NCBI GenBank assembly: GCA_965248355.1
Contig: OZ252098.1
Location: 2,112,001-2,176,000, forward strand
From: Candidatus Latescibacterota bacterium
GTDB taxonomy: Bacteria > Latescibacterota > UBA2968 > UBA8231
Reading direction: 5' to 3'
Length of the DNA stretch: 64,000 nucleotides
The notes beneath the pieces were generated by a model. That model had not been told where the DNA came from, ran no database searches, and saw only the letters and a program-made list of their open reading frames with translations. The translations under genes and the position numbers were made by a program. Positions 10,621-59,652 of the stretch are shown piece after piece. Each line of letters starts with the position of its first letter. Positions within the stretch are counted from its first letter, which is position 1.

Positions 10621-10624
<4 letters not shown>
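9704..10624 (-). CDS. DUF58 / vWA-like MoxR-associated protein
   Basis: GLHRSPYHGFSVEFSEHRPY, DWKALAR, YEEETNL, DVSGSM (MIDAS-like). Confidence 0.9.
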
Positions 10625-11610
<986 letters not shown>

Positions 11611-11627
11611 TCAGGGTCTCCTTCGGA

Positions 11628-40242: not shown

Positions 40243-42387
40243 TCACCCCCAGGCGAAGAGGAAGTTGCCGGTGTGCCCGGTGAAGTAGTCGATGGTCAGC
40301 CAGAGGCCGACGGTCAGCATCTGACCGGCGATCATCCCCAGGAACACCCCCTGAGTGCGGCGGTAGAGGTTGACGCCTCCATACCGGCAGACCATGACCT
40401 TGATGAGCCAGGCGACGAACACGCTGGTAATGGTGTAGGACATGAGGTCCACGGCCGCCACCGGGAAGCCGATCGGGTGGAGGGGCCACCAGAGCAGGCG
40501 GTGGCGAGCCCAGTACAGCAGGGCCATGATGCCGCCGCCGCCGAAGAGGAAGCCGATGCCCGGCCAGTAGAGACCGGCGGGCTCCAGATTGCGCACGGCG
40601 TTGTCGTAGGCTACCGCCGGCCCCGCCTTGAAGAACCAGGAATCGAGGTTGACGCCGCCGTAGCGGTAGGCGACGTGGAAGATCATCCAAAGCGAGCCCA
40701 GGGTCCCGATCATCAGGGCCAGGATGAGAGCCAGGAAGACCAGCCGCCGGCTGCGCGCATCCATGTCCTCGATCAGCTTGAGGGCGTTCGTGCAGGTCGC
40801 CATGGCAAAGGAGCGGACCTCGCTGGACCAGATGTAGGCCATGGACAGATTGAGCACGCCGGTGGGACCGACGAGAGATGAACCGAGACCCATGACGACG
40901 AAGTCGGGGGCGTTGACGGGTGTCCGCAGCGTCGCCAGCCCGGCTTCGGCGATGATCCGGGTGATGCCGATGAAGATCGCCATGGCCAGGACGATGAAGA
41001 AGAGGGAGACCCAAAGCGGTGTGCCCATGATCCACAGCCACAGGGTCATGACCGCGATCCCCCCGAGGGCGCCGATCACGGCGCCGCGGTAGGAGAGGAT
41101 CTCGTCCCGGTCGTCGACGAGGGGCGCCCGGCCCAGGGCTTTGAGCCAGACCGCCTTCAAGTGCTCGCGGGCGGTCCACAGCACCCCCGCCACCAGCACC
41201 AGCAGGGCGCCCAGCCCCTCGTAGCCGATCAGGGGTGCGTCGTACACGCCGTGGAAGTGCACCTGCTCCGATCTGACCCCGACGGTCGCCAGCACGCTCT
41301 TCTGGATCCTGCCGAGCAGGTAGAACACCCACACGCTGCCCGATATCCTCGTGTCGATGAGGTAGGAGAAGCCGGTCAGGGCGAAGTTGACCTTGCCGCC
41401 CAGGTACGGTATCGGCAGGTGTATGGAGACCATGGGAATGGAGGGGTCGTAGCTCGACATGGCCCTCAGGCTGCCGGCGATGAAGGGGATGGCCATGCCG
41501 ATCCACACGGACGGACGCCTGAAGAAGCCGTTCACCAGCCTGTTCTCGTCCTCGCCGCGGATCATGGCCAGACCGACCTGGGCGATCGGATAGCCCAGCC
41601 GCTCCCGCTCCATCCACTGGCGCCGCAGGATTACGGCGATCGAGATCATGCAGACGTACAGGGCCAGCAGGAAGACGGCCCACCACATCAACGGCTCGAC
41701 CCAGGCGCCGTAGGGGATGCTCTGGCCGGGCCGGGAGATGCCCTCGTAGAACAGGGCGTTCCCGGCGCCGTCGTCTACCAGGATATCATGCTCGGGGAAG
41801 TGGGGGAAGAGCTTCTCCCGCCACTGGTTCTCCGGAGAGGCGTAGTAGAAGATGGCGGTGAGGGAGGGCAGGATCAGCTCGGTCAGGCCCATGGTGCACA
41901 CGGCCGAGACCATGGCCAGCATGGCATAGACCATGATCAGCTCCGCCCGGTTGAGGGCCAGGCTGCGACCGGACCACGCCAGCGGCACGTTGCCGAGGGC
42001 GCAGAGCAGGGCGAAGGTGGAGAAGATCAGCCCGGGTGAATGCGCATCGACATCGCTCAGGGGCCAGTAGGCGTAGAGCCAGGCAGCCCCCAGGGCGATG
42101 GCGAAGGCGAGGGCCGCCCCCTTGCTGCGCGCGGCCAGCTTGAAGGCCAGGTTGAGGATCCCGATCAGCACGACGAAGAGGAAGATGGCCCCCGGGGTGC
42201 TGATGTCTGCAGCCAGGTAGGCGCCCTTGATGATCATGTTGCTGTAGGGAGCGCTGACGGCGAGGAAGAAGCTCAGGAAGCTCCCCACGCAGAACCCCCG
42301 CCACGTCAGGCGGTGGCGCGATTCGAGGAGGGGCTCGGAGCGCGACCTCAGGTGCTCGCGGTAGCTCGGGGCGATTTCCTTTTTCAC
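40243..42387 (-). CDS. Polytopic inner-membrane protein, DUF6785/DUF6784-like (putative transporter)
   Basis: Many hydrophobic segments; WMERERLGYPIAQV, RIIAEAG, WWPLHPIGF, GMIAGQ motifs. Confidence 0.75.
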   Translation of the reverse strand: MKKEIAPSYREHLRSRSEPLLESRHRLTWRGFCVGSFLSFFLAVSAPYSNMIIKGAYLAADISTPGAIFLFVVLIGILNLAFKLAARSKGAALAFAIALGAAWLYAYWPLSDVDAHSPGLIFSTFALLCALGNVPLAWSGRSLALNRAELIMVYAMLAMVSAVCTMGLTELILPSLTAIFYYASPENQWREKLFPHFPEHDILVDDGAGNALFYEGISRPGQSIPYGAWVEPLMWWAVFLLALYVCMISIAVILRRQWMERERLGYPIAQVGLAMIRGEDENRLVNGFFRRPSVWIGMAIPFIAGSLRAMSSYDPSIPMVSIHLPIPYLGGKVNFALTGFSYLIDTRISGSVWVFYLLGRIQKSVLATVGVRSEQVHFHGVYDAPLIGYEGLGALLVLVAGVLWTAREHLKAVWLKALGRAPLVDDRDEILSYRGAVIGALGGIAVMTLWLWIMGTPLWVSLFFIVLAMAIFIGITRIIAEAGLATLRTPVNAPDFVVMGLGSSLVGPTGVLNLSMAYIWSSEVRSFAMATCTNALKLIEDMDARSRRLVFLALILALMIGTLGSLWMIFHVAYRYGGVNLDSWFFKAGPAVAYDNAVRNLEPAGLYWPGIGFLFGGGGIMALLYWARHRLLWWPLHPIGFPVAAVDLMSYTITSVFVAWLIKVMVCRYGGVNLYRRTQGVFLGMIAGQMLTVGLWLTIDYFTGHTGNFLFAWG

Positions 42388-42570
42388 GCCAGGCGCTTCA
42401 GTGGGTGAGGGTGGAGACCGCTTTGCTGATCATCGCCAGCCGGCGCAGAACATGCCGACCAGCGCCATGCCGGCGCCGACGCCGAGCACCATGGCGTTGG
42501 CGCCGTTGTATTCGGACAGCTGCCCCCCGCGTAGATCAAATGGCCGGAGATCCCGGGAGCTGGCGGCGCC

Positions 42571-44280
42571 TCAGCTACCACCCTCCTGTTGTACCAGGGC
42601 TCTCAGGTTCTCTTCGTGGATCTTGACCTGGGGCTCGTACTGTTGCCGCAATTCGCCCAGGAACCGGAAGAAGGCCGCATCGCGCTTCCGCCGCAGGACC
42701 ATGGCCCGGGCTCGCGTCGCGACCTCGGCGAAGGGCTTCGGGCCGCCTCCGAGGGTCGACTCGACGACCCTGAACACGGAATGGTAACGGTCTTCTGACG
42801 CCGCACCGGGGATCACGACCTGGCGGGCCGGCACCTCCACTTCGATGGGACCCAGCAGGTCCCCCGGCGCGGCTCCCCGGGCGGCTTCGAACAGGGCCTC
42901 GTGCCCTTCTCTCTGATACCAATGGAGGTGGAATCTCCCGGTGTCTGGTATGGGCATGCGCCGCAGGGTGTGCTGCTGTGCCAGGACCCGCAGATCCTCA
43001 CCGCGCTCGATCCGGCCCCGGAGCGCGACCGCTTCTTCGCGTGTCGCGACCAGGATTTCGTCCAGCGTCAGGGCCTCCTGGGGGACGAAGCTCTGCGGAT
43101 TCCGGGCGTGGAAGCGCCGCGCCTCGGCCTCGTCCACCTGCACGTCGCCCGTCACCTTCTTCCTGATGACCGCCAGCAGGCGTTCCTGCTCTCTGGCCTG
43201 GCGCCAGGCGACCATCTCCTTCTCGCGGTCGATTCCGGCATTGTGAGCGGCCTGCATGGCCAGCGCGCGGGGAACCAGGACCCACTCCCCAAACCACCGC
43301 ACCTGCTCTCGCACATCTCCCGAGAACTCCCGGTAGTTCTCCCGGGACGAGTCGACGAACTCTCCCACCGTGATGGTGCCGCCGTCGAACTCGTAGAGTA
43401 CCGTGCCGCGCTCCACCTCGGAGAACGTGTGTCCCCCGCTCTCCAGACGCGCGGCGAGAAACTCGAAACCGTCTACTCGGGGCCGCACGTCCAGAGCGCC
43501 CCGCAGTTCCCGGCCAAGCTCCATGGACCGGAAGCCGGCCTTCTCCCGGTGGAGCTCGGCCTCCACCACACTCCGCACCCGTTCGAGGGGAACAGGAACC
43601 TCGTCCATGACCTTGAAAACGCCGTAGGTGCCGTCCGGCAGGGGTATGGGTTCGGTGATCTGACCCTTCTCGAGGGGGAAGACCTTTTCCTGCATGACGG
43701 CCAGGGGCATCTGGTCCCTGGTGGCGGACCCCGCGTAGCGGCCGCCCTGTTCCGCCGTCGGACGGTGGGTCGAGCGCTGCCGCGCCAACTCCCCGAAATC
43801 GGCGCCGCTCTCCAACAGGCGCACGATCTCCTCGGCCTCTTCCCTGCTCTCGACCACGATCTTGCCCGCCTTGACCGCGCGGTTCCGTCCGGTCTTCAGG
43901 TAGTGGTCGTGGATTTCCTGATCTTCGAGCGTGATCTTCGCGTCCACTTCCCGGGCCAGGAACTCCTTCACCAGCCGTTCGGTCCATTCGCGGTCCAGCT
44001 TGCGGCGCATGGCGGGGTCGCGGTCCCATCCCCGCGCTGCCGCTTCCTGAATGAGGATCTCCTTGTCGATCAGGGCCTGCAGATGCTGCCGTCGGCCTTC
44101 GATGCCCGCCTCCTTGGACCTCAGGCTTTCGGCCAGGCGCTCCTCGTAGCGGCGCAGCTGCGCCGCGTGAATGCGGGTCTCTCCCACCTCGGCCAGCACC
44201 GGGCCATGCGAGTCTCCCCCACAACCCGACAGGACCGCCCCCAGAGCCAGGACCAGCACCGATGTGGCAGGTCCCGTCAC
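42571..44280 (-). CDS. Lipoprotein parvulin-type peptidyl-prolyl isomerase / chaperone (PrsA/SurA-like, two PpiC-like domains)
   Basis: Lipobox VLSGC; LIDKEILIQEA; GADFGELARQRS..GG; second domain EILV..GEDLRVLAQQHT; GTG start overlaps the upstream stop. Confidence 0.8.
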   Translation of the reverse strand: MTGPATSVLVLALGAVLSGCGGDSHGPVLAEVGETRIHAAQLRRYEERLAESLRSKEAGIEGRRQHLQALIDKEILIQEAAARGWDRDPAMRRKLDREWTERLVKEFLAREVDAKITLEDQEIHDHYLKTGRNRAVKAGKIVVESREEAEEIVRLLESGADFGELARQRSTHRPTAEQGGRYAGSATRDQMPLAVMQEKVFPLEKGQITEPIPLPDGTYGVFKVMDEVPVPLERVRSVVEAELHREKAGFRSMELGRELRGALDVRPRVDGFEFLAARLESGGHTFSEVERGTVLYEFDGGTITVGEFVDSSRENYREFSGDVREQVRWFGEWVLVPRALAMQAAHNAGIDREKEMVAWRQAREQERLLAVIRKKVTGDVQVDEAEARRFHARNPQSFVPQEALTLDEILVATREEAVALRGRIERGEDLRVLAQQHTLRRMPIPDTGRFHLHWYQREGHEALFEAARGAAPGDLLGPIEVEVPARQVVIPGAASEDRYHSVFRVVESTLGGGPKPFAEVATRARAMVLRRKRDAAFFRFLGELRQQYEPQVKIHEENLRALVQQEGGS

Positions 44281-47183
44281 TCTCTCAATCCGGCGTATAC
44301 GGTGAGATAGGACAGGCCGCTGGTCTCCGACCGGTCTTTGTGGGCGAAGGTGTCGATCTTCCGCCTGTCCACACGAATCCCCATCGTGGCCATCAGCCGG
44401 TATCCCAGGTAACTGCTCGCATTGGCCAGCTGCAGGGCGAGGGACAGCTCATGGAAGTCCCCGGTGGGATCTCCCGGATTCAGGCCGGCTGCGGGGTCGT
44501 CATCGAAGGCCACCTCCCGCTGGGCGAAGTCGCGGAAGATGACCTGCTCCAGGCCGACGATCACCATGCTGTGTCTCAACACCGGGATGTCCAGCCGCAG
44601 GGAGGCCATGCCGGCCCACTCCTTGCGCTCGAAGACCCGGTCGTTCAGGAGCCACTCGGTGTTGAAGGGCGTATCGTCCAGGAACAGCTCCTGCTTGACG
44701 CGCGGACGGAGTTGGATTCCGTTGCCCAGAGGATAGAGCCAACCCAGTTTGTTGATCAAACCGAGCCGCCGGGTGTGCTTCGAGATCTTCCGGCCCTTCC
44801 GGTCCACGGTGAGCTTCTCCCGCTGCCGCAGCACCTCGTGGATCAGCTTGTTCTCGGAGTTGATGCCGGCATTGCCCAGGCGCTCGAAGGCCAGCGACAG
44901 CTTGTTGACCCAGGTATCCGGCAGGCCCAGCGGATCCGGGACCGGGGTCATGCCCGCGTCCCTGAACCTTCCGTGCAGCCATTGGAAGAGGTCGTCCGCG
45001 ATATCGTCCTCGACCCGCTTCAACATGTTGAAGACAGCCAGCTCTCCCACGCCGGGATAGCTGCGCTCGAAGGCGAAAAGGGCATAGCTGCTCACGTTGG
45101 TCTCGCCGGTCGAGGGACGGCGCACCCGCTGGTGGCCCGCGGTGACCTTGGCGCCCGGCATGATCCACGCACCGCCGTACACGTTGTATCCGCGGCGGTC
45201 ACGCTTGTAGGGGTAGTCGGGTTCGTCATCGTTCTCGAAACGGTCCCCCCAGCCGTTGTTGTTCATGTCGATGCCGAAGAGGTACTCGGGCCGGTCCACG
45301 CTGTAGCGCAGGAAGGGCTCGGCGTAATCGGGCACACTGTTGGGCCGCACCCGGGTGTTGTTCTGGTTGAAGTCGGAGATGAAATCGTTGTTCTCGTCGA
45401 GGCCGGGAAAGACCGCCTCGTCCCCGTACCCCTCGAACCCGCGCAGGATGCCGGTGCCCCGTTCCTCTTGTGTCCGGCCGTCGTCGAATATGCGCTGCTG
45501 GTCGTTCTTGCGGTCGTTGTCGTCGTTGTCGTCGACGAAGTCGTAGAGGTAGCGGGCATTGGCCAGAGGCGTGTCCGCGTAGTTGACCCGGCCCGCCGAG
45601 TCCAGGAACCGCATGGTGGTCGAGTATTCGGCGTCCATGCCGAAGGCCTCGCCGAAGAGGTAGTACGGATGGAAGTCCCTGGCCACGTTGACCATCCACC
45701 CTGCGGCGGAGGGATTTCCCCGAAGGCCCGATGAGGTGGTGTGAGTGGTCCGGCTCACGTCGGGGTACTTGCGGTACTGGTGGTTCACGTTGAACTCGCC
45801 GTAGAGCCTGAACCCGGCCAGATCGTCGGCCTCCACCGTAAAGCCGAGGACCTGGGTGGCGGTGGGCAGTCCGTAGTCAAAGACCACGGCGCCCAGGTTG
45901 GAATGGTCCTTCACATTCCCCGGCGCCCGCGCCATGGTCCTGAAGACCGGGCGCGGTTCGTAGAGGGCGTTGTCGGTCTCCTGGTCGGAAGTGACTTCGA
46001 CCTTGTAGTCGTTGCTCAGGACCATCCGGAACCGGACCTTCCTGATGTTGTTGATCACATCGGCCAGGGGCACCACCGTTTCCAGATCGTCGCGGACCTC
46101 CGGGTCCAAGTCGGCCAGCACGTAGTCCAGTCGGATCCGCGCCAGTTCGCCGTCCCCTTCGGCTACCAGGAAGCCATCCCGAGGGACGCCTCCCGAAACC
46201 CTCGGATAGAAGCCGATCCGGCTGCCCACCAGCACCGTGTCCAGCTCTCCTACCCGGGTCGTGATCTCGATCTCGTGGGCGAAGAGGACGGGACTTCCCT
46301 CGCCGTCTTCCGGGGAATCGTCGGTAATCCGCACGGTGATCCGGTTGATGCGCGCCCCCGCCTGGTGGGAGCTCAGCCTTCCGGTGTATGGACTCCCGTC
46401 GAAGGGCCGGGTCGAGCTCCGCGCGTTGTGGGCGTTCACGAAGGTTCCGCCGAGGCGCGCGAAGTCGGCCACGTTCCAGACGGCCCGGAGACCGACGAGA
46501 GTGGTGAATTCGTCGATGAAACTGGACGTTGGCTCGACCAGCGGGACATTGATTCTGGACATGAGGGCAGTGGCCGAGCCGTGATCCGACATGTAGTCGA
46601 ACTGGACCCCGTTGAAGGCCGTCTTCCGAAGGGTCATGGGCGTCAGGGTCGTGCTGATCTCGTCGCCGATGCTCACCCGGAAGTGGTGCTGCCCCTTGGC
46701 GTCCGAAGAAACCACGAGGGAGCCGAGAAGGTCCTTGTACTGTTCGGTCTTGTGGAGCAGGTTCCCCTCGGAGGTCCGGGGCCGGCTCTGCTGCCAGTCG
46801 TAGATCAGCCAGCCTCGGGTCAGGAGCCTGCCGTAGAGATCGTAGTGATAGTCGCCCTCCTGATCGGTGGCCCGGTAAGGCCAGTAGCGCTCGAGGGCAT
46901 AGTTGGTCCCCTCCTCCCAGCGCCAGCGGTAGCGGTTGGCGGCCTCCTGGGGCAGGTACCATTTCCTGAGGGATGGAACGAAGGCGTCCGGACGCAGGCT
47001 GGGAGCCGCCGGGTAGTAGATCGCCCGGCCGCTCTCGCGGATGCCCAGGAGATTCCCGTAGCCCGACTGGGGCGCGCCGGGATCGACGCCCAACGTCACC
47101 GCGAGCCCGACGAGGATGAGGATTCGGGACCGGCCTGCGGGCCCCCCGGGCCGCACGGTGCGCGCTTCGGAGGGCTCGACCAT
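44277..47183 (-). CDS. Large exported protein, paralog 2 of a pair (putative outer-membrane protein with acidic Ca-binding-like loops)
   Basis: Hydrophobic N-terminal segment; shares blocks with 47183-49999 (KWYxPQE, YDLYG..LTRGWL.YDW, DDSPEDG, YGLPTA, FPGxDENNDF, C-terminal TVYAGL). Confidence 0.7.
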   Translation of the reverse strand: MVEPSEARTVRPGGPAGRSRILILVGLAVTLGVDPGAPQSGYGNLLGIRESGRAIYYPAAPSLRPDAFVPSLRKWYLPQEAANRYRWRWEEGTNYALERYWPYRATDQEGDYHYDLYGRLLTRGWLIYDWQQSRPRTSEGNLLHKTEQYKDLLGSLVVSSDAKGQHHFRVSIGDEISTTLTPMTLRKTAFNGVQFDYMSDHGSATALMSRINVPLVEPTSSFIDEFTTLVGLRAVWNVADFARLGGTFVNAHNARSSTRPFDGSPYTGRLSSHQAGARINRITVRITDDSPEDGEGSPVLFAHEIEITTRVGELDTVLVGSRIGFYPRVSGGVPRDGFLVAEGDGELARIRLDYVLADLDPEVRDDLETVVPLADVINNIRKVRFRMVLSNDYKVEVTSDQETDNALYEPRPVFRTMARAPGNVKDHSNLGAVVFDYGLPTATQVLGFTVEADDLAGFRLYGEFNVNHQYRKYPDVSRTTHTTSSGLRGNPSAAGWMVNVARDFHPYYLFGEAFGMDAEYSTTMRFLDSAGRVNYADTPLANARYLYDFVDDNDDNDRKNDQQRIFDDGRTQEERGTGILRGFEGYGDEAVFPGLDENNDFISDFNQNNTRVRPNSVPDYAEPFLRYSVDRPEYLFGIDMNNNGWGDRFENDDEPDYPYKRDRRGYNVYGGAWIMPGAKVTAGHQRVRRPSTGETNVSSYALFAFERSYPGVGELAVFNMLKRVEDDIADDLFQWLHGRFRDAGMTPVPDPLGLPDTWVNKLSLAFERLGNAGINSENKLIHEVLRQREKLTVDRKGRKISKHTRRLGLINKLGWLYPLGNGIQLRPRVKQELFLDDTPFNTEWLLNDRVFERKEWAGMASLRLDIPVLRHSMVIVGLEQVIFRDFAQREVAFDDDPAAGLNPGDPTGDFHELSLALQLANASSYLGYRLMATMGIRVDRRKIDTFAHKDRSETSGLSYLTVYAGLRE

Positions 47184-49999: not shown

Positions 50000-52183
50000 T
50001 CAGTACGCCACTTCGACGACGGTGGCGGCCGTCTCGGCGCTGGCCGCGCTGTGCACCTCTACGTGAGCCAGGTAGATCCCGGGCGGCACGAGCTCGCCAC
50101 GGCCGTTGGTGCCATCCCATGGGATCGACCAGTGACCGCCTCCCTGCTCGCCGGAGAAGAGGCGGCGAACGAGGTGGCCGGCCAGATCGAGCACCCTCAC
50201 CTCAACGGCCACGGGACCGATCACGCGCGACAGGTCGTAAGAGATGCGGGTCCGGTCGTTGATCCCGTCGCCGTTGGGGCTGAAGGGCCGCGGTCCGGCC
50301 CGGGTATTGATCAGGACGTGGCCGCCCGAAAGGGGCACGTCCACCGCCAGCACCCGCGGGTCCGCCGTTCCCGCCGGAGGAAAGGCGGCGTCCTCGGGGC
50401 CCAGGTGGGCCGCGTTGCCGGCGAGGATCTTCTGACCGCTGATCCCGATCCCGGTGCGGCCGGCCCACCCGGGAAAGGTCGTCCCGTATCTGAGGACGCG
50501 GCAGCGAAACCGGATCCTCAGGACGGCGGCCTCGCCGGCCTCCAGGTCGCTGACCGTTATGGCCGGGAAGCGTACCCGGAACCGCCGTTCCTCCACCGCC
50601 TCGATGCCGAAGTCGGCGGCCGGATCGGTGGGCAGGGCCGACGAGCTCAGATCCTGAGCGGAGAAGTCCGCCGCCTCGCTGCGGTCGTCGTGGAACAGGA
50701 CCTGGATCGACTCGATCGCTTCGACCCGGACCGGCGTGGCGATCTCGAAGGTGTCGAAGCCGCTGTCCCGGCCCGGCCGTATCCGGGTCGGCATGACCGC
50801 GTAGGTGAAGGTTTCCGGAACGGCCAGCTCGGCCTGACGAGGGTAGATCTCTCCGACGATCCGCTCGGCCGCCGGGGGAAACACCGTGAAGGCCAGCTGC
50901 CCAACCCCGGCCGCTGCCGCCAGGTCCCGGCTCACCAGTTCGACCCGGACCTGGAAATAGCGCCGCGGGCCCGGAGTGGTGACGACCGCCCCGAGCTGCT
51001 CGTCATCGATGTTCTCGACCGTGATGCCGCTGGTGCCTTCCTGCCCATACGGAGCCGACCACGGCGTCCAGGCGTCCGGATCGTCCCGGATCTCGCCCCG
51101 TGGCTTCGTGCCGAGGTAGTCCTCCAGGCTCAGAGCCACCCGGTTCTTCTCCGCCAGCGGCAGCGCCCGGTAGGCTCGCAGCGCATCGAGCGGCTCCAGG
51201 TCATCCAGGGCGATCTGCTCTCCCTCGGCCGTGGTGGCCACCGCGCCCTGCTTCCAGGGGAGATTCACCGAACCATCGGGACCCGGGCGGGTGAATTCCA
51301 GGGGTGTATCGTCATGCCCGGCGCGCGTCGCAATGCGGGCCTGCGCCAGCCCTTCGGGACCCAGGGCCTCCTCGATCCACCGGATCTTGCCCCACACCCC
51401 CCAGTCGTCCCCCAGGTCGTAGACATTGGAGATGTATCGGGCCTCGGGCACGAACCCCGCCCCGTATACCCGGAACTCGGCGATTTCGAAGCCGACCACC
51501 GTCTGCGACTTCAGTCGCAGGAAGCGGAGGTACTGGGGGGGGATCCGCAGGTCGACCACGGGCCGGTCGTTCTGCAGCTCCAGCTTGAAGCTGGTCAGCA
51601 CCGGCCGGCCGGACTCGTCTCTGGAATTCTCGCTGCCGTCGTTGACCAGAAGCTCGTAGGCGCGCAGAAAGTCGTTCTGGAACGGAAAGTCGGGCGTCTC
51701 GAAACCCGGAGCGTTCCTCGGAAAGAACTGGATCCGGTTCACCCCGAAGCGCGCCCCCAGGTCAACGTCGAACATGGCCCCGAAGGCGAGGACCTGCGGC
51801 CCCCCGGCTTCGCCCTTCTGGGTGAAAGCCGTCTCGAGATCGCCGTCCACCATCAGGAGCAGCTCCTCGGCGATGCCGCTCGTCAAGATGTTCGGCGAGG
51901 TCAGGGTGGCTGCGGCCGCGAAATTCCTGGTGGAGTCGGCTCTCTGCGGGAAGATCCAGCCCGGTCTTCCGGGAACGTCGAAGTCGACCACATCGCCCGG
52001 GGTGTTGGTGATCTCGGCCTCGTCGACACCGATCTCCACCGCGGCCGGGATCTGGCCGCCGCCGCCGTTCCAGGGTTGGCCGCCGGCGCCGCCCAGCACC
52101 CGGCTGTCGGCAGCCAGATTCTGGACCATCAGGCAGATTGTCCCGAGCAGGCCCAGGCAGAGGCTGATCGGCTGCGGTCTCAC
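50000..52183 (-). CDS. Exported discoidin(F5/8C)-like plus FlgD-Ig domain protein, paralog C
   Basis: GTG start with AGGAGG; VDGDLETAF..VDLG..FEIAEF; FSPNGDGIND, WDG..G.LVPPG.Y; ends VEVAY. Confidence 0.72.
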   Translation of the reverse strand: MRPQPISLCLGLLGTICLMVQNLAADSRVLGGAGGQPWNGGGGQIPAAVEIGVDEAEITNTPGDVVDFDVPGRPGWIFPQRADSTRNFAAAATLTSPNILTSGIAEELLLMVDGDLETAFTQKGEAGGPQVLAFGAMFDVDLGARFGVNRIQFFPRNAPGFETPDFPFQNDFLRAYELLVNDGSENSRDESGRPVLTSFKLELQNDRPVVDLRIPPQYLRFLRLKSQTVVGFEIAEFRVYGAGFVPEARYISNVYDLGDDWGVWGKIRWIEEALGPEGLAQARIATRAGHDDTPLEFTRPGPDGSVNLPWKQGAVATTAEGEQIALDDLEPLDALRAYRALPLAEKNRVALSLEDYLGTKPRGEIRDDPDAWTPWSAPYGQEGTSGITVENIDDEQLGAVVTTPGPRRYFQVRVELVSRDLAAAAGVGQLAFTVFPPAAERIVGEIYPRQAELAVPETFTYAVMPTRIRPGRDSGFDTFEIATPVRVEAIESIQVLFHDDRSEAADFSAQDLSSSALPTDPAADFGIEAVEERRFRVRFPAITVSDLEAGEAAVLRIRFRCRVLRYGTTFPGWAGRTGIGISGQKILAGNAAHLGPEDAAFPPAGTADPRVLAVDVPLSGGHVLINTRAGPRPFSPNGDGINDRTRISYDLSRVIGPVAVEVRVLDLAGHLVRRLFSGEQGGGHWSIPWDGTNGRGELVPPGIYLAHVEVHSAASAETAATVVEVAY

Positions 52184-52200
52184 TCGATGGCCTCCTGGTG

Positions 52201-54726
52201 TCAATACGCTACGTGGACCACGCGGTGCGCCTTGCGGCTCGATACGTCCGCGTCCGAATCCACCTCGATCTCCAACAGGTAGGCCCCGGGAGGCACCAGC
52301 CGGCCGCTCTGGTCGTCGCCGGACCAGCGGACCGTGTAGGATCCGCTCACGTGGGGACGCCGCTCCTCCCACTCCCTCACCAGGCCGCCGCCCAGATCGT
52401 AGAGGCGGGTCTTCACCGCGCGCTGCCCGGTGAGCCGGAAGACCGAGAACTCGAACCGCGCTTCGTCGTTGATCCCATCCCCGTTCGGGGTCAGGATCGG
52501 AGCGCTGATCGTCAACGGGCCCATCACCCGCCTGTCTTCCAACGGCCCTCGCAACAGCATCCCCTGACTCGAGGCCAGGGCGGTCGCATCGCCGGGATCC
52601 ACCCGTTGCCACCGGTCGGCCTCGGAGGAATTTCCCAGTTCCGCCTGCAGGATGGCGCCGGGGCGGAACAGGGTCGTGGTGAACCGCACTTCGATCAGGT
52701 CGACGTCGGGGCCCACCGCCGAATCCAGGCGCACCCACAGCGAGTCCGATCCGGCCGGGACCTGCTCCAGATCGGAGGGTCCCAGCTCGGCCACCGGGCC
52801 GGCTTCCCACTGCGACTCCCGGGCCATGCGGAGAAGCTGAAAATCCAGGTCCACCCCGGGAGCGTACAGGCGAATCTGGTCCATTCCGGGGCCGCTCCGC
52901 AGGAACTCGGCCTTGACGAACAGGGACAGGGTGTCGATGGCACCCAACCCGGATACCAGGGCCGGCTCGAGCTCGCCCCGGACCTGCCGGGCCAGGGGAT
53001 CGAGAAAGTTCAGCCGAATCGACCGCAGGGAGGCCGCCTGGTGCGGATCGTCCGTCATCAGCCAGGCCTGGAGCATCAGGTACGACCGCGGGCTCGGCGA
53101 GGTGACGGGGGCCCCCGAGACCGCGTATCCCTCGCTCCAGTCGCTCCAGTCACCCCCCGGCACCTGCTCGGCCACGATGTCGATCTCCTTCTTGGCGAAT
53201 TTGTTCAGCTTGTCGTAGGCCTCTTCGGTTATCTCGGTGCCATCGTCCTTGAAGTAGCGGAGGACATCCGCGAGTTGGTTGCCGGTCCGGCTGCGCAGCG
53301 AGATGGAGGTCCCGGGGGGCGTCTCTCCCTCCCACTCGATCGAGTTCAGCGTCCGGGCGCCGCCCAGCGTGATCAGGGGGGACGTGAGTGAAACGCGAGG
53401 CTGGTATCCCTCGCCGTAGAACTGCATCTCCCGCGTGTCCGCGTTGCCTCCCGCCATGCCGCCGGAATAGGGAATGCTGATGTAGCGGGCGACCGTCGGT
53501 TCGAACACGTTGACGTGGTAATCCATGCCGCCGTCGCCCCCGAGCGCCTGGCTGGTCCAGGCCAGTCTTCCCTCGGGCGTCAGGGTGCCGTCCGAGGTCT
53601 GGATTTCGTACTTGGTGATGGGTCCCTCGTAACCCTTGTTCTGGAAGAGCATCTGCACTCGATCCACCCAGAAGAAGGCGCCCAGGTCGAAGAAGAAGAA
53701 GCGCTGGGCGGGCTTGACGACGGTGGTCACGACCGTCGTTTCATACAGGCCGTCCACCAGGCTGGTGACCGCGGTGGTATCCGTCTCTATCTTCTGCGCC
53801 ACCCCCCGGCGGGCCGTCAACCCCAGGGCGATGTTCTCGCCTATCGTCCGCACTTCCATCCCGGCCAGACGGGGACGCTCGCGGCGGAAGTACCGGACCT
53901 CGCCACGCGATCCCGCGTCGATCGCCTCGTAGATCTCCGGCTCGACCCGGATGCTCCCATCGGCCACCCTCTTGTAGTAGTCCACCGCCCCCCGGCGGCC
54001 CGGCTCCAGGGCGTCGTAGACCTCGCGGGACACCTCGGCGCCTCGCACCGAGTCGCTTTCCGTCACCACGAGCTGGACGTACCGGATCTCGTCCCCCCGC
54101 CACTCGGGATCGCGGACGTCTCCCGACGGTTTCAGCTCGACGTCGAAGAGGCGTCGGCTCTTGTTCGCGCCCGGACTCGCGTAGGCGACGATGTAGCTCT
54201 TGACGTCCTTCAGGCCCTGCTCGGGACGCTCGCCGTCCGAGGTCAGAAGGGTATACTGGAGAAAGGGATCCCCGAGATCCTCGTTCACGAAGGTCAGGAG
54301 GATCCTGGTGGCGGACACGACCCGCCCCAGATCCAGCTCGAACCACCAGTCGCGCAGTGGCTGGTCCGGGTCGGGCTGCCAGTACGAGGTCAGGTCCCCG
54401 TCAAGGAGGTTGGCTACCGCGGCCGCATTGGTGCCGGCAGTCACCGCGTTCATGAAGTCGACGTCTTCAGCCTCGACTCCTCTGGGCGGGTGCCGTCTCA
54501 GGTGCTCGACAATGTCCCGGGTCGCGTCGATATCCCTGGCCACAAAGTGCGGTCGAACCGTGTGCGCCGGGGCCAAGAACTCCACCGTGCCGGCCGGGAA
54601 ATTCCAGGCTTCCAGGTGGCGGCCCTCTACCACGATCTGGTTGCCGCGGATGACATACCCCTGGCCCCAGACCGCACTGCCACACAGGACCCAGAGAGCC
54701 AGCGCCGAGCTGATCCTGCCGTTCAT
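52201..54726 (-). CDS. Exported discoidin-like (two copies) plus FlgD-Ig domain protein, paralog B
   Basis: ATG with GGAGG; LDGDLTSYW..ELDLG and VDG..FDLG; LTPNGDGIND, GRLVPPGAY; ends VHVAY. Confidence 0.72.
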   Translation of the reverse strand: MNGRISSALALWVLCGSAVWGQGYVIRGNQIVVEGRHLEAWNFPAGTVEFLAPAHTVRPHFVARDIDATRDIVEHLRRHPPRGVEAEDVDFMNAVTAGTNAAAVANLLDGDLTSYWQPDPDQPLRDWWFELDLGRVVSATRILLTFVNEDLGDPFLQYTLLTSDGERPEQGLKDVKSYIVAYASPGANKSRRLFDVELKPSGDVRDPEWRGDEIRYVQLVVTESDSVRGAEVSREVYDALEPGRRGAVDYYKRVADGSIRVEPEIYEAIDAGSRGEVRYFRRERPRLAGMEVRTIGENIALGLTARRGVAQKIETDTTAVTSLVDGLYETTVVTTVVKPAQRFFFFDLGAFFWVDRVQMLFQNKGYEGPITKYEIQTSDGTLTPEGRLAWTSQALGGDGGMDYHVNVFEPTVARYISIPYSGGMAGGNADTREMQFYGEGYQPRVSLTSPLITLGGARTLNSIEWEGETPPGTSISLRSRTGNQLADVLRYFKDDGTEITEEAYDKLNKFAKKEIDIVAEQVPGGDWSDWSEGYAVSGAPVTSPSPRSYLMLQAWLMTDDPHQAASLRSIRLNFLDPLARQVRGELEPALVSGLGAIDTLSLFVKAEFLRSGPGMDQIRLYAPGVDLDFQLLRMARESQWEAGPVAELGPSDLEQVPAGSDSLWVRLDSAVGPDVDLIEVRFTTTLFRPGAILQAELGNSSEADRWQRVDPGDATALASSQGMLLRGPLEDRRVMGPLTISAPILTPNGDGINDEARFEFSVFRLTGQRAVKTRLYDLGGGLVREWEERRPHVSGSYTVRWSGDDQSGRLVPPGAYLLEIEVDSDADVSSRKAHRVVHVAY

Positions 54727-54770
54727 GTTGCCGCACCTCCCTGTGCCGGCCCACGGCCGACAGGCCCGCC

Positions 54771-56735
54771 TCAATACGCCACCGCGATCAGGCGGGTTCC
54801 GCTGTCGCGGCCCCCTTCGCGATCGACCGCGACCCGGCATACGTAGAGCCCCGGCGGCACCAGCCGGCCGCCGCTGTCCCGCCCGTCCCAGGGCTGGATG
54901 TACCGACCCGAACGGTCCCGGCCCACATACACCTCCCGCACCCGCCGGCCCGACAGATCCCACACCCCCACCTCCACCCGCCGGTCCTCGGTCAACTTCA
55001 GCAGGTCGTACCGGATCGCCACCGCGTCGTTGATCCCGTCCCCGTTGGGCGTAAACGCAGCCGGCTCGACCTCCAGCCCCCCCACAATCGACGCTCCCAG
55101 CGACAGCGTCTCCACCGACAGACGGTTGCCGTCCAGCGAGTTGGTCGCATCGCCTTCCCGCACCGGTTGCCAGACCTCCGCCGGCGCCTGGCTGTCGAAG
55201 ACGCGGCCCTGGAAGGTCGCCGCATAACGATACACCTCGCCCCGCAGCCGAACCTGCAGCAACTCACCGCTCTCGTTCACTCCCAGCCGCGGAAAACTCA
55301 CCACCACCCGGTCCTCGGTGCGCAGGCTGTCCGCCTCCGTGAACGCTACCTCCGCTCCCTCCACCTCGACCCCGACCACCTCCGCCACCCGGCCCCCCTG
55401 GAAGCGCAACTCCAGGCTGTCGAATCCCCGATCCCGCAGCGACAAGGTGGGCCGCACCGCATAGGTGAAGTCGGTCAACTCCGAAGCCTCGGCCTGCCAC
55501 GGATCCACCTCCCCCACCAGATCCGTCGCCGCCGGCGGCGACGATACCGCGAATTCCAGGAGATTCACCTGCCCCCCGTCCAGAAAATCACTGGCGAAGT
55601 CAATCGAGAACTGCACGTAGCTGCGGGGCCGCGGCGCCACCATCGGCACCCCCAGACTGTCGTCGAACGAATACGGCGCCGACCACAGGTCCCAGTTGGC
55701 CGCGTCGTGGGTGATGCTGCCTTTCTCCTTCTCCTTCAGCTTGTCATACCGCGCCCGGGTCAGGGGCGATCCGTCCGGCCCATACGGCACCTCCTCGTCG
55801 GCCCGGAAGGTCCGCCGCCAGTACCGGGACGGATCCGGATCGTCGCCGCCATGGCTGCGGATCGATACCCGGGCCGACTCGTCCTGGCGGCCCGACCAGC
55901 GCACCCGGCCCAGACTGGAGGGGGCGCCCAGCGGAATGGTGTTCGAGGTATAGCCGGCGAACGGCACATACCCCTCGGCGAAGACCTCCATCTCCGCGAT
56001 CTCCCACGCCTGCCGCTGAAACGGGTCGACCCACAGGGCCAGCTGTCGCACCGGCGTCCGGTCGAGGGGGATCTCCACCACCGGGCTCTTGTTCTCCGTG
56101 ATCTCCGCCACCAGATCGAATTCGAGTCCCGTGCGGACGAGCTTGCGCTGGAATTCCAGGTGAGACCGGTTCGGCGTTCCCCCGTGGGGTTCGCCACGGC
56201 CGGTGGCGATGGCCATGTGCTCGATGTAGTGCGGGGAGCCGGGACGCGGGGACACCCGCACCCGGTTCACCGGGAACAGGCCGCCCAGGTCGAAGTACAG
56301 GGTGAAGCCGGTGATACCGCCGCCCGGACTGTAATCCGACAGCGACGCATTGTGCTCCAGGAAGAAGGTGGTGAAGTCCCCATCCGCGACCACGTCCAGG
56401 GCCGGATCGTGGCCATAGCCCGAATAGCGCTCGGTCCTCAGGAAGCCGCCCCGCTCCCCCACCGTGGCCAGGATGCTCTCGTCGCTGCCGTAGTAGTAGG
56501 GCGCCAGCGCTCCATCCAGGTTCACGCTGTCGAAGTCGCCGGCCCCGGCGGGATCGACGTCGGTCCACCTCAGCTGCTCGAACCCGGCGCGGCCGTCCGC
56601 CACCTCGAGCGGCAGGGGAAAGCGCGCGTAGTCCTCGCCGCCCAGCCGATAGATCGTCAGCGCGTCTGCGGGGAGCAACATCCCCGGGCTCGCCGCCAGG
56701 CACAAGATCAGGCCTGCCAATCGCGGTTTTGCCAA
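54771..56735 (-). CDS. Exported discoidin-like plus FlgD-Ig domain protein, paralog A
   Basis: TTG start (approximate); ADGDFTTFF..FDLG..WEIAEMEV; FTPNGDGIND, WDGRD..GRLVPPGLY; ends IAVAY. Confidence 0.72.
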   Translation of the reverse strand: MAKPRLAGLILCLAASPGMLLPADALTIYRLGGEDYARFPLPLEVADGRAGFEQLRWTDVDPAGAGDFDSVNLDGALAPYYYGSDESILATVGERGGFLRTERYSGYGHDPALDVVADGDFTTFFLEHNASLSDYSPGGGITGFTLYFDLGGLFPVNRVRVSPRPGSPHYIEHMAIATGRGEPHGGTPNRSHLEFQRKLVRTGLEFDLVAEITENKSPVVEIPLDRTPVRQLALWVDPFQRQAWEIAEMEVFAEGYVPFAGYTSNTIPLGAPSSLGRVRWSGRQDESARVSIRSHGGDDPDPSRYWRRTFRADEEVPYGPDGSPLTRARYDKLKEKEKGSITHDAANWDLWSAPYSFDDSLGVPMVAPRPRSYVQFSIDFASDFLDGGQVNLLEFAVSSPPAATDLVGEVDPWQAEASELTDFTYAVRPTLSLRDRGFDSLELRFQGGRVAEVVGVEVEGAEVAFTEADSLRTEDRVVVSFPRLGVNESGELLQVRLRGEVYRYAATFQGRVFDSQAPAEVWQPVREGDATNSLDGNRLSVETLSLGASIVGGLEVEPAAFTPNGDGINDAVAIRYDLLKLTEDRRVEVGVWDLSGRRVREVYVGRDRSGRYIQPWDGRDSGGRLVPPGLYVCRVAVDREGGRDSGTRLIAVAY

Positions 56736-56791
56736 GATTTCACCCTGCTGTCGTGTGGGCCCCCCGCTGTGCACCAGGGGCTGATTCTCAG

Positions 56792-56825
56792 GGAAGGGGG
56801 GATGTGAGACCACATCCCCCCTTCC
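56792..56825. other. Perfect 15 bp intergenic hairpin without U-tract
   Basis: GGAAGGGGGGATGTG-AGAC-CACATCCCCCCTTCC between the first and second gene of the module. Confidence 0.85.
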
Positions 56826-56874
56826 TTCGTGCCATGGAGCTTGGAGCGCCGGCAGCGAATCTGCTCGCCGTCAG

Positions 56875-57783
56875 CTACTGCGTGAACGCGGCCTTGACCC
56901 GGCCCCAGCTCTCGGCTTCGACGGCCGTGCCGAACTCGACATCCTCCACCGGAGCCAGCAGGAAGTCGGTGGATACCGACGAGGTTTGCCAGACGGTTGC
57001 CTCGCCATTCAGAATCCACTGATCTTTCGAGTTGTCCTCCGTATTGTCATAGTCGGTGATCTCCCAGTTCAGACCGATGATCTCACCTTCTACCATGTCG
57101 TGCACCACACTGCCGTCCGGGTCATCCCACTGCAGGTTGTCCCACAACGTGAGCATCCACTCCGCCTGGCCGGTGACGTCGGCGGCGTTGAGCTCGGCGG
57201 CATCCGACGAGTACCCATTGTCGGCCCACGGCAGTTCGCCGGTCCAGGTAGCCTGGGACTGCCAGTACCAGGCCCACGCCGTCGCCTCGTTGTTCACGTT
57301 CGGCGACCCAGGATCGATATCCGGGAGGCGGAAGTGGATATTCTGGGCGAAGCGCGAGCCGTCCTCCGGCGAATCGCCATTGAAGGAGTCTTCGCCGCCG
57401 TGGTCCCCGTCAACGTTCATCTCGAAGCTGTCGGGTAAGTTCGCTGCGGCATCGAGACCGGAGACGTCCCGCTTGCGGAAGTCGTCGAACACCTGGTGGT
57501 GCATATAGAGACGGTCGGTGCTGGCGCTGTAACCGACGATGACCTTGCTGTTCATACTCGACAGGTCCGTCCACTGCTCGCCGGCCGGGGACGCGTAGAA
57601 CTCCGGCCCGATCCAGTAGTCCTGGGGAACCACGGACCACTCGGACAGATCCCCGTCCAGGGTCGGCTCGGCACCCGCCGGGAACTGGAACGCGAGCAGA
57701 ACCTGCCCCTCTGGCACGTGACCCCAGGCGGAAGGGGCGAAGCCCATGGTCAGGCAGAGGGCGAAAATCACTTTCTTCACCAT
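56875..57783 (-). CDS. Exported CBM9/DOMON-like acidic protein with C-terminal TAVE..SWG.VK tag
   Basis: Signal peptide MVKKVIFALCL..AWG; PTLDGDLSEW, RLY...V.DD, DSFE..VDGD, IIGL...ITDYD motifs; GGAGA RBS. Confidence 0.7.
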   Translation of the reverse strand: MVKKVIFALCLTMGFAPSAWGHVPEGQVLLAFQFPAGAEPTLDGDLSEWSVVPQDYWIGPEFYASPAGEQWTDLSSMNSKVIVGYSASTDRLYMHHQVFDDFRKRDVSGLDAAANLPDSFEMNVDGDHGGEDSFNGDSPEDGSRFAQNIHFRLPDIDPGSPNVNNEATAWAWYWQSQATWTGELPWADNGYSSDAAELNAADVTGQAEWMLTLWDNLQWDDPDGSVVHDMVEGEIIGLNWEITDYDNTEDNSKDQWILNGEATVWQTSSVSTDFLLAPVEDVEFGTAVEAESWGRVKAAFTQ

Positions 57784-58116: not shown

Positions 58117-59652
58117 CTAAGGGGCAAGCTGCGCCAGGCGCGCCTCGATCGCTGCGAGCTGGCGGGCATCTCCCCGCCAGTGGGCCACCGCCGATCGATA
58201 GGCCCGCCCGGCCGCATCCGCGTTCCCCAGCTTCTCGCAGGCGTCGCCCAGGGCGAGGTAGGCCCTCGCGTTGGTCGAATCCAGCCGCAGTGCGGCCTGC
58301 AACATCTCGATCGCCTGGTCGTAGTCCCGCTGGCGGAGGTAGCACTGTCCGAGGCTCAGGCGGGCATCGACCCAATCCGGCCGGTGGCGGATCGCTGCCC
58401 TGTAGGACTGCCCGGCCTCGCCCAGGCGCCCCTGAAGCAGCCCCAAATTGCCCAGGGCGTGGTGCGCCTTGGCAAAGGTCGTGTCTACTTGCAGGGCCCG
58501 CTCGAAGGCCTGACGGGCCTGGTCCAGGCGCCCGTTCCGGACGGCGATGTAGCCGATGGTGAAATGGGCCCCGCGGGCCTCGCGCTGGCCCGGGGCCCGG
58601 GCGATCACCTGGCGGGCCAGCGCCGCCGCCTCGTCCAGGTCGCCCTGATTCAGGCAGGCATGGCTCAACCCCGCCAGGCCCCCGACATGCCCGGGCTCGC
58701 GCTCCAGGACCGCCCGGTACATTCCGATGGCCTCCTCCCACCGTCCGAGCTCGACGTAGGAGCGCCCCGCCGCCAGATAGGAGTCCAGGTCGCCGGCGGC
58801 CCTGCTCACCTGCTTCTCCAGGACGCGCGCCTGAGCGGCCCTCCGGTTCAGCTCGGCAAAGCGGTCGAGCAGTATCCGGGCCTTTTCCACGCGTCCCTGG
58901 GCGGAGTGGAGGTTGGCCAGGCTGTGGTATGCCTCGGGATAGTCCGGGTCGATCTCGCGAGCCCGGCGCAGCATTTCCCCGGCCTCCTCGTAGCGCTCCG
59001 CGTAGGTGTAGAGCACGCCGAGTTCCCGGTGGGCCTCCTTGCCGCCGGGATCGAACCTGACAGCGCGGGTCAGCATCTCCTCGGATTCTGCCAGCCGCCC
59101 CTGCAGCCGGAGGAGCCGGCCCAGGGTCCACAGCGCCCCGGCATCGGCCGAGTCCGCCGCCACGGCCCGCACCAGGGCCGCCTCGGCCCGCTCGTACGCC
59201 CCCTGCTCCTGGTGCAGACCGGCCAGGAGACGGTACGAGGGAGCCGTGCCCGGATCGATGCGCACGGCCTCTTCCAGCAGGGCGACCGCCTCCCGCTGGC
59301 GTCCCGCCTCTCCGTAGGCCACGGCCAGATTGTGGTAGGCGAGAACGAGGCTGGAATCCAGGCGAATGGCGGCCAGGTACGCGGTCTCGGCCGAATCCCT
59401 GCGGCCCAGCTTCATGTAGGCCGTGGCCAGATGGCAGTGGGCTTCCGCAGAGAGGGAGTCCAGGGCCACGGCCTGCTGATACGCGGCCAGCGCGTCGCGG
59501 TACCGGGCCTGGCGGAAATAGGTGTTCCCGAGCGTGCGGAGCCGGTCTCTCTCCGGGTCCGGCGCCGGCGATTCGGGTGCCCGGCACGCGCCCAGCCAGA
59601 TCGTCATCAGGGCAACGGCGGTGCGGCGGACCGGAACTGCGTACGAATGCAT
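58117..59652 (-). CDS. TPR-repeat lipoprotein
   Basis: Lipobox-like LGAC; many canonical TPR units (AY.NL, A...LG..Y). Confidence 0.82.
   Translation of the reverse strand: MHSYAVPVRRTAVALMTIWLGACRAPESPAPDPERDRLRTLGNTYFRQARYRDALAAYQQAVALDSLSAEAHCHLATAYMKLGRRDSAETAYLAAIRLDSSLVLAYHNLAVAYGEAGRQREAVALLEEAVRIDPGTAPSYRLLAGLHQEQGAYERAEAALVRAVAADSADAGALWTLGRLLRLQGRLAESEEMLTRAVRFDPGGKEAHRELGVLYTYAERYEEAGEMLRRAREIDPDYPEAYHSLANLHSAQGRVEKARILLDRFAELNRRAAQARVLEKQVSRAAGDLDSYLAAGRSYVELGRWEEAIGMYRAVLEREPGHVGGLAGLSHACLNQGDLDEAAALARQVIARAPGQREARGAHFTIGYIAVRNGRLDQARQAFERALQVDTTFAKAHHALGNLGLLQGRLGEAGQSYRAAIRHRPDWVDARLSLGQCYLRQRDYDQAIEMLQAALRLDSTNARAYLALGDACEKLGNADAAGRAYRSAVAHWRGDARQLAAIEARLAQLAP

Follow-up and report, generated by a model that had tools for sequence, protein, structure and literature searches.

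The stretch analysed here, called the window throughout, comprises 64 kb of contig OZ252098.1 (positions 2,112,001-2,176,000 of the 5.50-Mb single-contig genome of a Candidatus Latescibacterota bacterium, assembly GCA_965248355.1) and has a G+C content of about 70%. It contains a block of eight open reading frames (ORFs), all on the minus strand and all with a strong third-position G+C signal, which runs from 57783 to 40243 and represents one copy of a multi-copy, undescribed outer-membrane cassette of Latescibacterota. From its upstream end, the block begins with C (56875-57783), encoding a 302-aa exported CBM9/DOMON-like protein whose ATG start at 57783 is preceded by GGAG 7 nt upstream. Three discoidin-type genes come next, namely D1 (54771-56813; the longest ORF gives 680 aa, while the likely start at 56720 gives 649 aa), D2 (52201-54726; 841 aa, exported, combining a discoidin (F5/8 type C) domain with a FlgD-Ig/CHU_C tail), and D3 (50000-52183; 727 aa, exported, abutting B1). 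They are followed by B1 (47183-49999; 938 aa), an exported and predicted giant outer-membrane beta-barrel of an unnamed family, and by its paralogue B2 (44277-47186; 969 aa), which occupies a second barrel slot. The block ends with P (42571-44280; 569 aa), a lipoprotein of the parvulin-type peptidyl-prolyl isomerases with a SurA-like N-domain, and T (40243-42387; 714 aa), a predicted polytopic inner-membrane transporter composed of DUF6785 and DUF6784.

The eight co-oriented genes and three tight junctions listed in the first-pass annotation of this DNA are indeed present, the D3/B1 junction reading TGAATG, the B1/B2 junction GTGATG (a 1- or 4-base overlap), and the B2/P junction GTGA on the minus strand. 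Export signals had been assigned to seven of the products, in agreement with signal peptides judged by eye from the translations, such as MNGRISSALALWVLCGSAVWG in D2. The domain calls (CBM9-like C, discoidin plus FlgD-Ig in D1-D3, lipoprotein isomerase P, and DUF6785 in T) likewise hold on Pfam and profile searches, and the reported lack of a TonB-dependent receptor, SusD, ABC ATPase, or pilin is matched by the lack of Plug, SusD, ABC ATPase, and pilin Pfam matches in the eight proteins. On its low-coordinate side, T is followed by a tRNA-Lys gene on the opposite strand and by housekeeping genes, including those for EF-P, GcvH, and ScpA/B. A 20-aa hydrophobic ORF in the P-T spacer (42430-42492, minus strand), which shares the reading frame of P beyond its TGA stop and lies inside a 14-pair inverted repeat (42471-42505), was rejected as a gene and attributed to chance; this spacer is not conserved among orthologous loci.

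The components of the block recur throughout the genome, which holds 28 B ORFs (at least three of them fragments), 28 D-type proteins with a V-[AV]-Y end, 26 DUF6785 genes, 14 C genes, and six P genes. The D and B genes are gathered in about 12 loci, which fall into two kinds. Those of type I run C, D, D, D, B, and P, in many cases with a second B ahead of P, and lie at approximately 0.22, 0.35, 2.15 (the copy in the window), 2.81, 4.40, 4.46, and 5.40 Mb, with all six P genes inside or beside them. Type II loci start with a DUF6785 gene, followed after one or two further genes by a D gene and three B genes, and lie at approximately 0.15, 0.50, 0.55, 1.57, 1.95, and 2.47 Mb. Among the 28 B ORFs, 24 have a D gene (13) or another B gene (11) immediately before them on the same strand. 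A Mutator-family transposase interrupts one B gene, leaving it in two pieces (L021:301-4318; G000 2.469-2.473 Mb), and a further copy, at 359.5-362.5 kb, seems to be truncated or frameshifted. Genes next to the sister loci encode DUF4838, PcRGLX/GH127-like, and GlcNAc-2-epimerase-like proteins, GDSL esterases, and true CBM9 proteins, as well as FG-GAP/ASPIC and TPR proteins. Judged from their sequences, these neighbours hint at glycans as the substrate, and together with the multiplicity of copies they bear out the layout resembling a polysaccharide utilization locus (PUL) that had been proposed for the block.

Beyond this genome, a scan of species-representative genomes with B1 recovered 78 loci, mostly from records titled Latescibacterota and some with other labels, in which B is present by construction. 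The D-B-B core was found in 77 of these loci and the full order C-D-D-D-B-B-P in 48, with D3 being the D slot retained wherever a related locus has the core. Fourteen loci are orthologous (B1 80-94% identical), and all of them carry P and T behind the barrels. T lies within the flank of only 5 of the 44 loci in a middle group (~60% identity) and of 15 of the 20 loci in a far group (~51% identity), where it is mostly on the opposite strand; T is loosely tied to the cassette. The suggestion of a conserved module is therefore upheld, since the gene order recurs in the genome and in its relatives far beyond chance, and no part-for-part match of its components to a characterised system was found in the Pfam, NCBIfam, and PDB sequence searches or in the structural comparisons. 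In a phylum sample of 151 Latescibacterota genomes, including that of the window, B was detected in 94 and D, at a threshold of E <= 1e-30, in 79. Within family f1, B was present in 63 of 63 genomes and D in 61, while neither was found in f2 (0/30) or f3 (0/19); B also occurs in 10 further families of the phylum. Some relatives have several times more candidates than this genome, with up to 95 first-look B candidates in one of them.

RNA contigs from four libraries of three studies, 90-99% alike to the locus, cover parts of all eight genes and bridge the C/D1, D2/D3, and D3/B1 junctions. These contigs come from related strains and may include DNA carry-over, and their depth cannot rank the genes. 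In the literature searched, no paper was found that describes the cassette, and none on DUF6785 or on type IX secretion in Latescibacter. The parts available of publications on polysaccharide utilization and on the outer membrane or beta-barrels of Latescibacter do not mention the module, and those of a study on sponge Latescibacterota (PMC12993501) hold no passage on secretion systems or the outer membrane, though the gene list in its Supplementary Data Set S5 could name genes of the cassette. Latescibacterota are widespread and uncultured, and much of their coding capacity for the envelope is taken up by the cassette.

B1 and B2, which share about 37% identity, have no Pfam (E <= 0.01) or NCBIfam match, and B1 also has no sequence match in the PDB. 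In a set of 1.84 billion proteins, 711 representatives are related to B1 at E <= 0.001. An AlphaFold model of B1, built from a 75-row alignment, is all-beta (predicted local distance difference test, pLDDT, 85; predicted template modelling score, pTM, 0.84), with approximately 26-30 long strands as read from the DSSP list of the model rather than from its coordinates. All 44 Foldseek matches read for it (E <= 0.001) are barrels except for one apolipoprotein row, and the top 50 VIA-align rows are barrels as well. The matched structures include SlpA, MtrB, LptD, SprA, FhaC, and TamA, all of them outer-membrane barrels. The longest VIA-align alignments were obtained with SlpA (403 residues, Z 11.0), MtrB (404 residues, Z 10.4), and LptD (347 residues, Z 10.6), while Foldseek matches to barrels of the SlpA/MtrB/LptD type have E-values from 2e-7 to 1e-5, template modelling (TM) scores of about 0.2, and identities of 6-9%. 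A conserved Asp/Asn-rich acidic insert is found at residues ~516-640 of B1, where D, E, and N account for 34%. On the strength of the model, B1 is predicted to be a very large outer-membrane beta-barrel without a close solved relative, forming a family of its own.

In size class, B1 resembles LptD-LptE, MtrB-MtrA/C, SprA, and Deinococcus SlpA, very large outer-membrane barrels with a protein or lipid partner that they hold or let through, but the cassette differs from LptD, MtrB, and SlpA in having no heme motifs, no SLH match, and no LptD family match. A porin-cytochrome reading was rejected, as the CxxCH motif occurs in none of the eight proteins. An S-layer (SlpA-like) reading was set aside, its sole support being a Foldseek row with a TM score of 0.22, with no SLH match in the Pfam scan. 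A resemblance of B to DUF6029, suggested by an Atlas lead (0.89), was not confirmed, the genome's only DUF6029 match being a different 535-aa frame at 3.53 Mb. This DUF6029 barrel-like gene adjoins a gene for a small FlgD_ig-tailed protein (G000:C1:3531095-3532936), forming a tail-plus-barrel pair of a different family. In a quick IQ-TREE search with 38 B proteins, slot-1 and slot-2 sequences fall into separate clades (SH-aLRT 100 and 97), each containing members of all three locus groups, and the B1/B2 pair therefore predates the multiplication of the cassette. The two slots are accordingly not interchangeable, which fits a fixed multi-part assembly. The 1+3+2 hetero-oligomeric complex proposed in the first-pass annotation, however, finds no support in any of these results.

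D1, D2, and D3 are only 27-29% identical to one another. D2 matches F5_F8_type_C above the cut-off (E 4.2e-10), D3 matches FlgD_ig (E 2e-8, 34 bits against a cut-off of 27), and D1 matches FlgD_ig (E 1.9e-5) and CHU_C (E 1.8e-5), at 25 bits just below the cut-off. All three carry a C-terminal FlgD_ig/CHU_C domain and end in VAY. Across the D family alignment, FlgD_ig is matched by 28 of 28 members and CHU_C by 27 (E <= 0.01, best 3.4e-10), and FlgD_ig fits the tails better than CHU_C. Against solved structures, the family profile matches the FlgD Ig domain (E 2.4e-10) and, weakly, a glucanase discoidin domain (E 0.037), and it also touches the C-terminal domain of PorU. A V-[AV]-Y end is typical of the D proteins of the cassette, while other tail-bearing proteins of the genome end in K..LL[KR]; among the predicted proteins ending in V[AV]Y, 21 of 22 belong to the D family. 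In addition, 27 of the 28 aromatic-ended D family proteins are encoded within eight genes of a B gene, and 2 of 17 generic tail-bearing matches lie within that distance. The D tails thus appear, by sequence, to constitute a special subtype of the FlgD-Ig/CHU_C C-terminal domain ending in V-[AV]-Y. With them the cassette defines a new secretion or anchoring tail subtype, and with B1 and B2 a new family of predicted outer-membrane barrels of very large size.

The genome also contains candidate components of a type IX secretion system (T9SS), including a 2067-aa frame that matches SprA_N above the cut-off, two PorU sortase homologues above the cut-off, and a PorV-like gene (E 7e-46) adjoining one PorU at 4.99 Mb. 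Because of these SprA-, PorU-, and PorV-like genes, the D tails are probably type IX-style address tags, which the earlier annotation had overlooked. The second PorU homologue (C25 peptidase) has a DUF6785 gene on one side and a Reg_prop (PorZ-like) gene on the other (G000:C1:1930330-1938217, L105) and lies about 15 kb from a type II cassette; two sortase sets may serve the two tail types. Within the window itself, a PorZ-like protein with Reg_prop repeats, a PorZ N-terminal propeller, and a FlgD_ig tail is encoded at 18666-20888 (minus strand), beside a MoxR/DUF58/DUF4159/DUF4175/TPR cluster at 9704-17979.

In Bacteroidota, according to the portions available of PMC9143113 and PMC12618676, proteins with type-B C-terminal domains (CTDs) bind and need genetically linked PorP/SprF-like barrels. 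The SprB-SprF and PG1035-PorP-PorE systems share with the cassette an exported cargo, in the case of the D proteins with a putative CHU_C-type domain, encoded beside its own barrel, and several diverged cargo-barrel pairs per genome, and the present genome has SprA-, PorU-, and PorV-like genes in addition. The view of the first-pass annotation that a Sus-like logic offers the closest parallel is accordingly replaced, the probable CHU_C/T9SS-type tails and the candidate secretion genes placing T9SS cargo with a cognate barrel closer. The differences are also considerable. Unlike PorP/SprF, the barrels of the cassette form an old B1-B2 pair, or triplets in type II loci, do not match PF11751, and contain an acidic insert that is conserved; unlike type-B CTD cargo, the D tails match FlgD_ig better than CHU_C and end in V-[AV]-Y; and unlike SprB-SprF, the cassette adds a parvulin foldase and a CBM9-like protein to its three cargo slots. 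A Pfam scan of the eight proteins found nothing PorE-like.

By analogy with these systems, the cassette may consist of tagged lectin-like cargo that is held or delivered by cognate giant barrels along a type IX route and serves polymer capture, a reading to which we give an even chance. The D proteins would cross the inner membrane via Sec and would be directed by their tails to a type IX-like outer-membrane translocon (SprA-, PorV-, and PorU-like). B1 and B2 would then receive and hold, or first shuttle, their cognate D proteins at the surface, a step modelled on type-B CTD cargo with PorP/SprF-like barrels in Bacteroidota, while P would help either the barrels or their cargo to cross the periplasm. 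Once displayed, the discoidin and CBM9-like modules would bind some polymer, with a glycan or glycoprotein as the most likely candidate, the breakdown products would enter the cytoplasm through transporters such as T, and many diverged cassette copies would provide many specificities. If the barrels do receive T9SS-type cargo, the principle of cargo plus cognate barrel would extend past Bacteroidota and past proteins of PorP/SprF size.

Several observations weigh against such a tagged-cargo model. The CHU_C matches of D1 (E 1.8e-5), D2 (E 4.1e-3), and D3 (E 6.1e-4) all fall below the 27-bit cut-off, and a barrel predicted to have about 26-30 strands would far exceed the needs of an anchor. B is not a member of the PorP/SprF family, its ~940 aa being three times larger than the 273-position PF11751 model, and PorP/SprF (PF11751) has no match in the genome, although the control genomes are silent too. 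The PorV-like matches remain under the curated cut-off, and the GldM motor gene was not found in the genome, with control genomes again silent and GldK, GldL, and GldN not searched; a working T9SS in the phylum is therefore not established. In family f10, B occurs in 13 of 13 genomes but D in only one at the strict threshold, although the D proteins of this family may be too diverged for E <= 1e-30. Finally, there is no enzyme inside the cassette copy of the window, and the genes neighbouring T elsewhere in the genome mix sugar-acid and peptide enzymes, so that the substrate class is not fixed.

The same barrels could instead act as dedicated export pores, with B1 and B2 translocating the D proteins (and C) themselves, independently of a T9SS, in the manner of two-partner secretion systems or ushers. 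Consistent with this idea, the cargo genes directly precede the barrel genes, the operon includes a periplasmic foldase, the best VIA-align rows for the C-terminal half of B1 are FhaC, TamA, and CdiB (Z 12-14) as well as PapC, and the silence of GldM, shared with the controls, would be in keeping with it. These structural rows, however, are generic barrel matches with root-mean-square deviations (rmsd) of 7-12 Å, and POTRA and TPS domains are lacking. The D tails moreover belong to the same domain family as those of about 50 other tail-bearing proteins without an adjoining barrel, and SprA and PorU homologues are present, all of which makes self-contained export by B1 and B2 very unlikely.

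The last two genes of the block would contribute folding and transport functions to the tagged-cargo model. P matches Rotamase (E 7e-12, 46.6 bits against a cut-off of 21.7), Rotamase_2 (43.5 against 27), and SurA_N_3 (E 5.8e-4), and its lipobox was read by eye as LSGC, while its matches to NCBIfam models of the EpsD/PrsA/PpiD type fall below their own cut-offs. T consists of Pfam DUF6785 (E 6e-108) and DUF6784 (E 4.5e-25). Its model (pLDDT 82, pTM 0.85) aligns with the barley Yellow Stripe 1 transporter YS1 (7wsr_A) over 550 of 600 residues in VIA-align (Z 24.4, rmsd 4.0 Å), the sole chain among 48,161 with Z >= 8, and Foldseek supports the same match (E 3e-7, probability 1.00, TM 0.52/0.60). 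T has no Pfam OPT (PF03169) match at E <= 0.01, and an Atlas lead to OPT clusters reached merely 0.76-0.77. T is accordingly modelled as a transporter with the OPT/YSL fold, which it has in common with barley Yellow Stripe 1 at an identity of just 11-12%; unlike Pfam OPT members, it is classed as DUF6785 plus DUF6784. A structural assignment to the OPT/YSL transporter fold is thereby gained for these two families. As described in the portions available of PMC9691689 and PMC9131082, OPT transporters import oligopeptides and metal chelates in a proton-coupled manner.

Elsewhere in the genome, the genes next to T copies encode several peptidases as well as oxidoreductases, lactonases, BNR proteins, and enzymes of the enolase superfamily. 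Three times, with the orthologous loci included in the count, a DUF6785 gene adjoins a gene for a giant FtsX-like membrane protein of about 1470 aa (L100:9848-14263, L115:1213-5697, and L031:17374-21768), one of the three also carrying an M28 peptidase domain, and in some orthologous loci the giant FtsX-like gene separates P from T. T looks like a general importer recruited beside many catabolic loci rather than a fixed part of the cassette. Its earlier description as the inner-membrane transporter of the module can thus be kept in part: the predicted OPT/YSL fold speaks for the transporter, whereas its presence in 5 of the 44 middle-group loci speaks against membership in the module.

The distribution of T also bears on the original proposal of Sus-like import, in which B1 and B2 are substrate channels, D1-D3 and C are surface lids, and T provides the inner-membrane step, all without TonB. 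T does follow P in each of the 14 orthologous loci, sister loci have enzyme-like neighbours, and SusD (PF07980) is unmatched in the genome, with a positive control in Bacteroides thetaiotaomicron. The barrels are very large, like channels for large cargo (LptD, SprA, and ushers), and the multiplication of the cassette to 28 B ORFs resembles that of SusC/D pairs in Bacteroidota. Indeed, PULs of the SusC/SusD kind share with the cassette many diverged copies, surface binders beside a large barrel, and enzyme or transporter genes in some copies. Unlike SusC/SusD, however, the cassette has neither SusD nor a TonB-dependent plug barrel, no Plug or TonB_dep_Rec match being found in the eight proteins, and its binding proteins carry secretion-type tails and are not lipoproteins. 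Without a match to a plug or TonB-box family, the barrels have no known energy source, and the 21 Plug-domain matches of the genome all lie outside the block. T is absent from most paralogous loci and pairs elsewhere with other genes, and the conserved acidic insert of B1 may close the lumen. Sus-like import is on balance unlikely; if the barrels did import substrate, they would be a second solution beside the Sus systems that depend on TonB.

Discoidin domains commonly serve in adhesion, and the cassette could also be an adhesion or host-recognition array whose lectins fasten the cell to host matrix or particles with no feeding role. One RNA run holding the locus is labelled sponge metagenome, and the record names of many related loci are, we presume, typical of sponge-derived bins. 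The copy in the window includes no enzyme, and the type-B CTD cargo of Flavobacterium consists mostly of adhesins, as stated in the portion available of PMC12618676. Transporters and glycan-enzyme-like genes nevertheless recur beside sister cassettes, and the B family extends to 10 further families of the phylum, which leaves a purely adhesive role quite improbable.

In the tagged-cargo model, C would be a further displayed binding protein. C has no Pfam or NCBIfam match of its own, although a profile of 24 relatives matches the CBM9 of a Thermotoga maritima xylanase (PDB 1i82; E 9.7e-4) in two co-linear pieces, and 3 of the 24 family members match Pfam CBM9_1 (best 8.9e-7). The CBM9-like label therefore denotes a distant likeness, seen by profile alone. 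His22, His128, a DGD..W motif, and a WG.K tail are invariant in all 24 sequences. In each of the 24 aligned C proteins, His22 (57718-57720) is the first residue after the predicted cleavage site of the signal peptide (A-x-A|H), and His128 lies within the motif DADHSGG. A mature N-terminal histidine with a second histidine recalls, as we take it, the copper 'histidine brace' of LPMO-type proteins.

A more speculative extension would make the cassette a phylum-wide, TonB-independent counterpart of SusC/D, with a B1/B2 channel gated by a calcium loop, V-[AV]-Y lectin lids delivered by a T9SS, and C as an oxidative helper with a copper histidine brace. We regard this combination as very doubtful; if it were true, the tens of cassettes per genome would be uptake machines diversified in specificity.

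The tail of C reads ...AVExxSWGR[IV]KAAF and belongs to a recurrent tag. In the predicted proteome there are 27 instances of the pattern [ST]W[GA]x[IV]K with 3-10 residues after it (AVExxSWGRIKAAF being the typical form), 26 of them within 25 residues of the C-terminus, and its carriers are small exported proteins of 150-450 aa, including the C family. In C itself, the tag is encoded at 56875-56910, and it is also kept in C homologues of other genomes. By its sequence and position, this C-terminal tag looks like an unrecognised sorting or docking signal.

Upstream of the block, a gene for a 496-aa TPR-repeat protein matching many Pfam TPR families (58117-59607, minus strand) lies directly ahead of C on the same strand in 13 of the 14 orthologous loci (76-87% identity), and it is also found in 15 middle-group loci (~43% identity). 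It is probably a ninth member of the module. A terminator-like hairpin (58115-58096) follows its stop, and the gene may therefore be transcribed separately.

Farther upstream, a 610-aa protein (60800-62632, minus strand), possibly an accessory enzyme, has no match in the Pfam library used. A homologue with 50% identity is encoded directly downstream of P in 14 middle-group loci. Relatives bear the precomputed label PF26099, and many of them come from records named Poribacteria, where they are 63-67% identical. This distribution suggests that the gene is shared among symbiont lineages. A second protein without a match in the same Pfam library is encoded at 59860-60741 on the plus strand. Elsewhere in the window, a DDE_3 transposase gene (25532-26620, plus strand) recurs at 1.48 Mb (L112:9622-10710) with the same Pfam scores and is probably a multi-copy insertion sequence.

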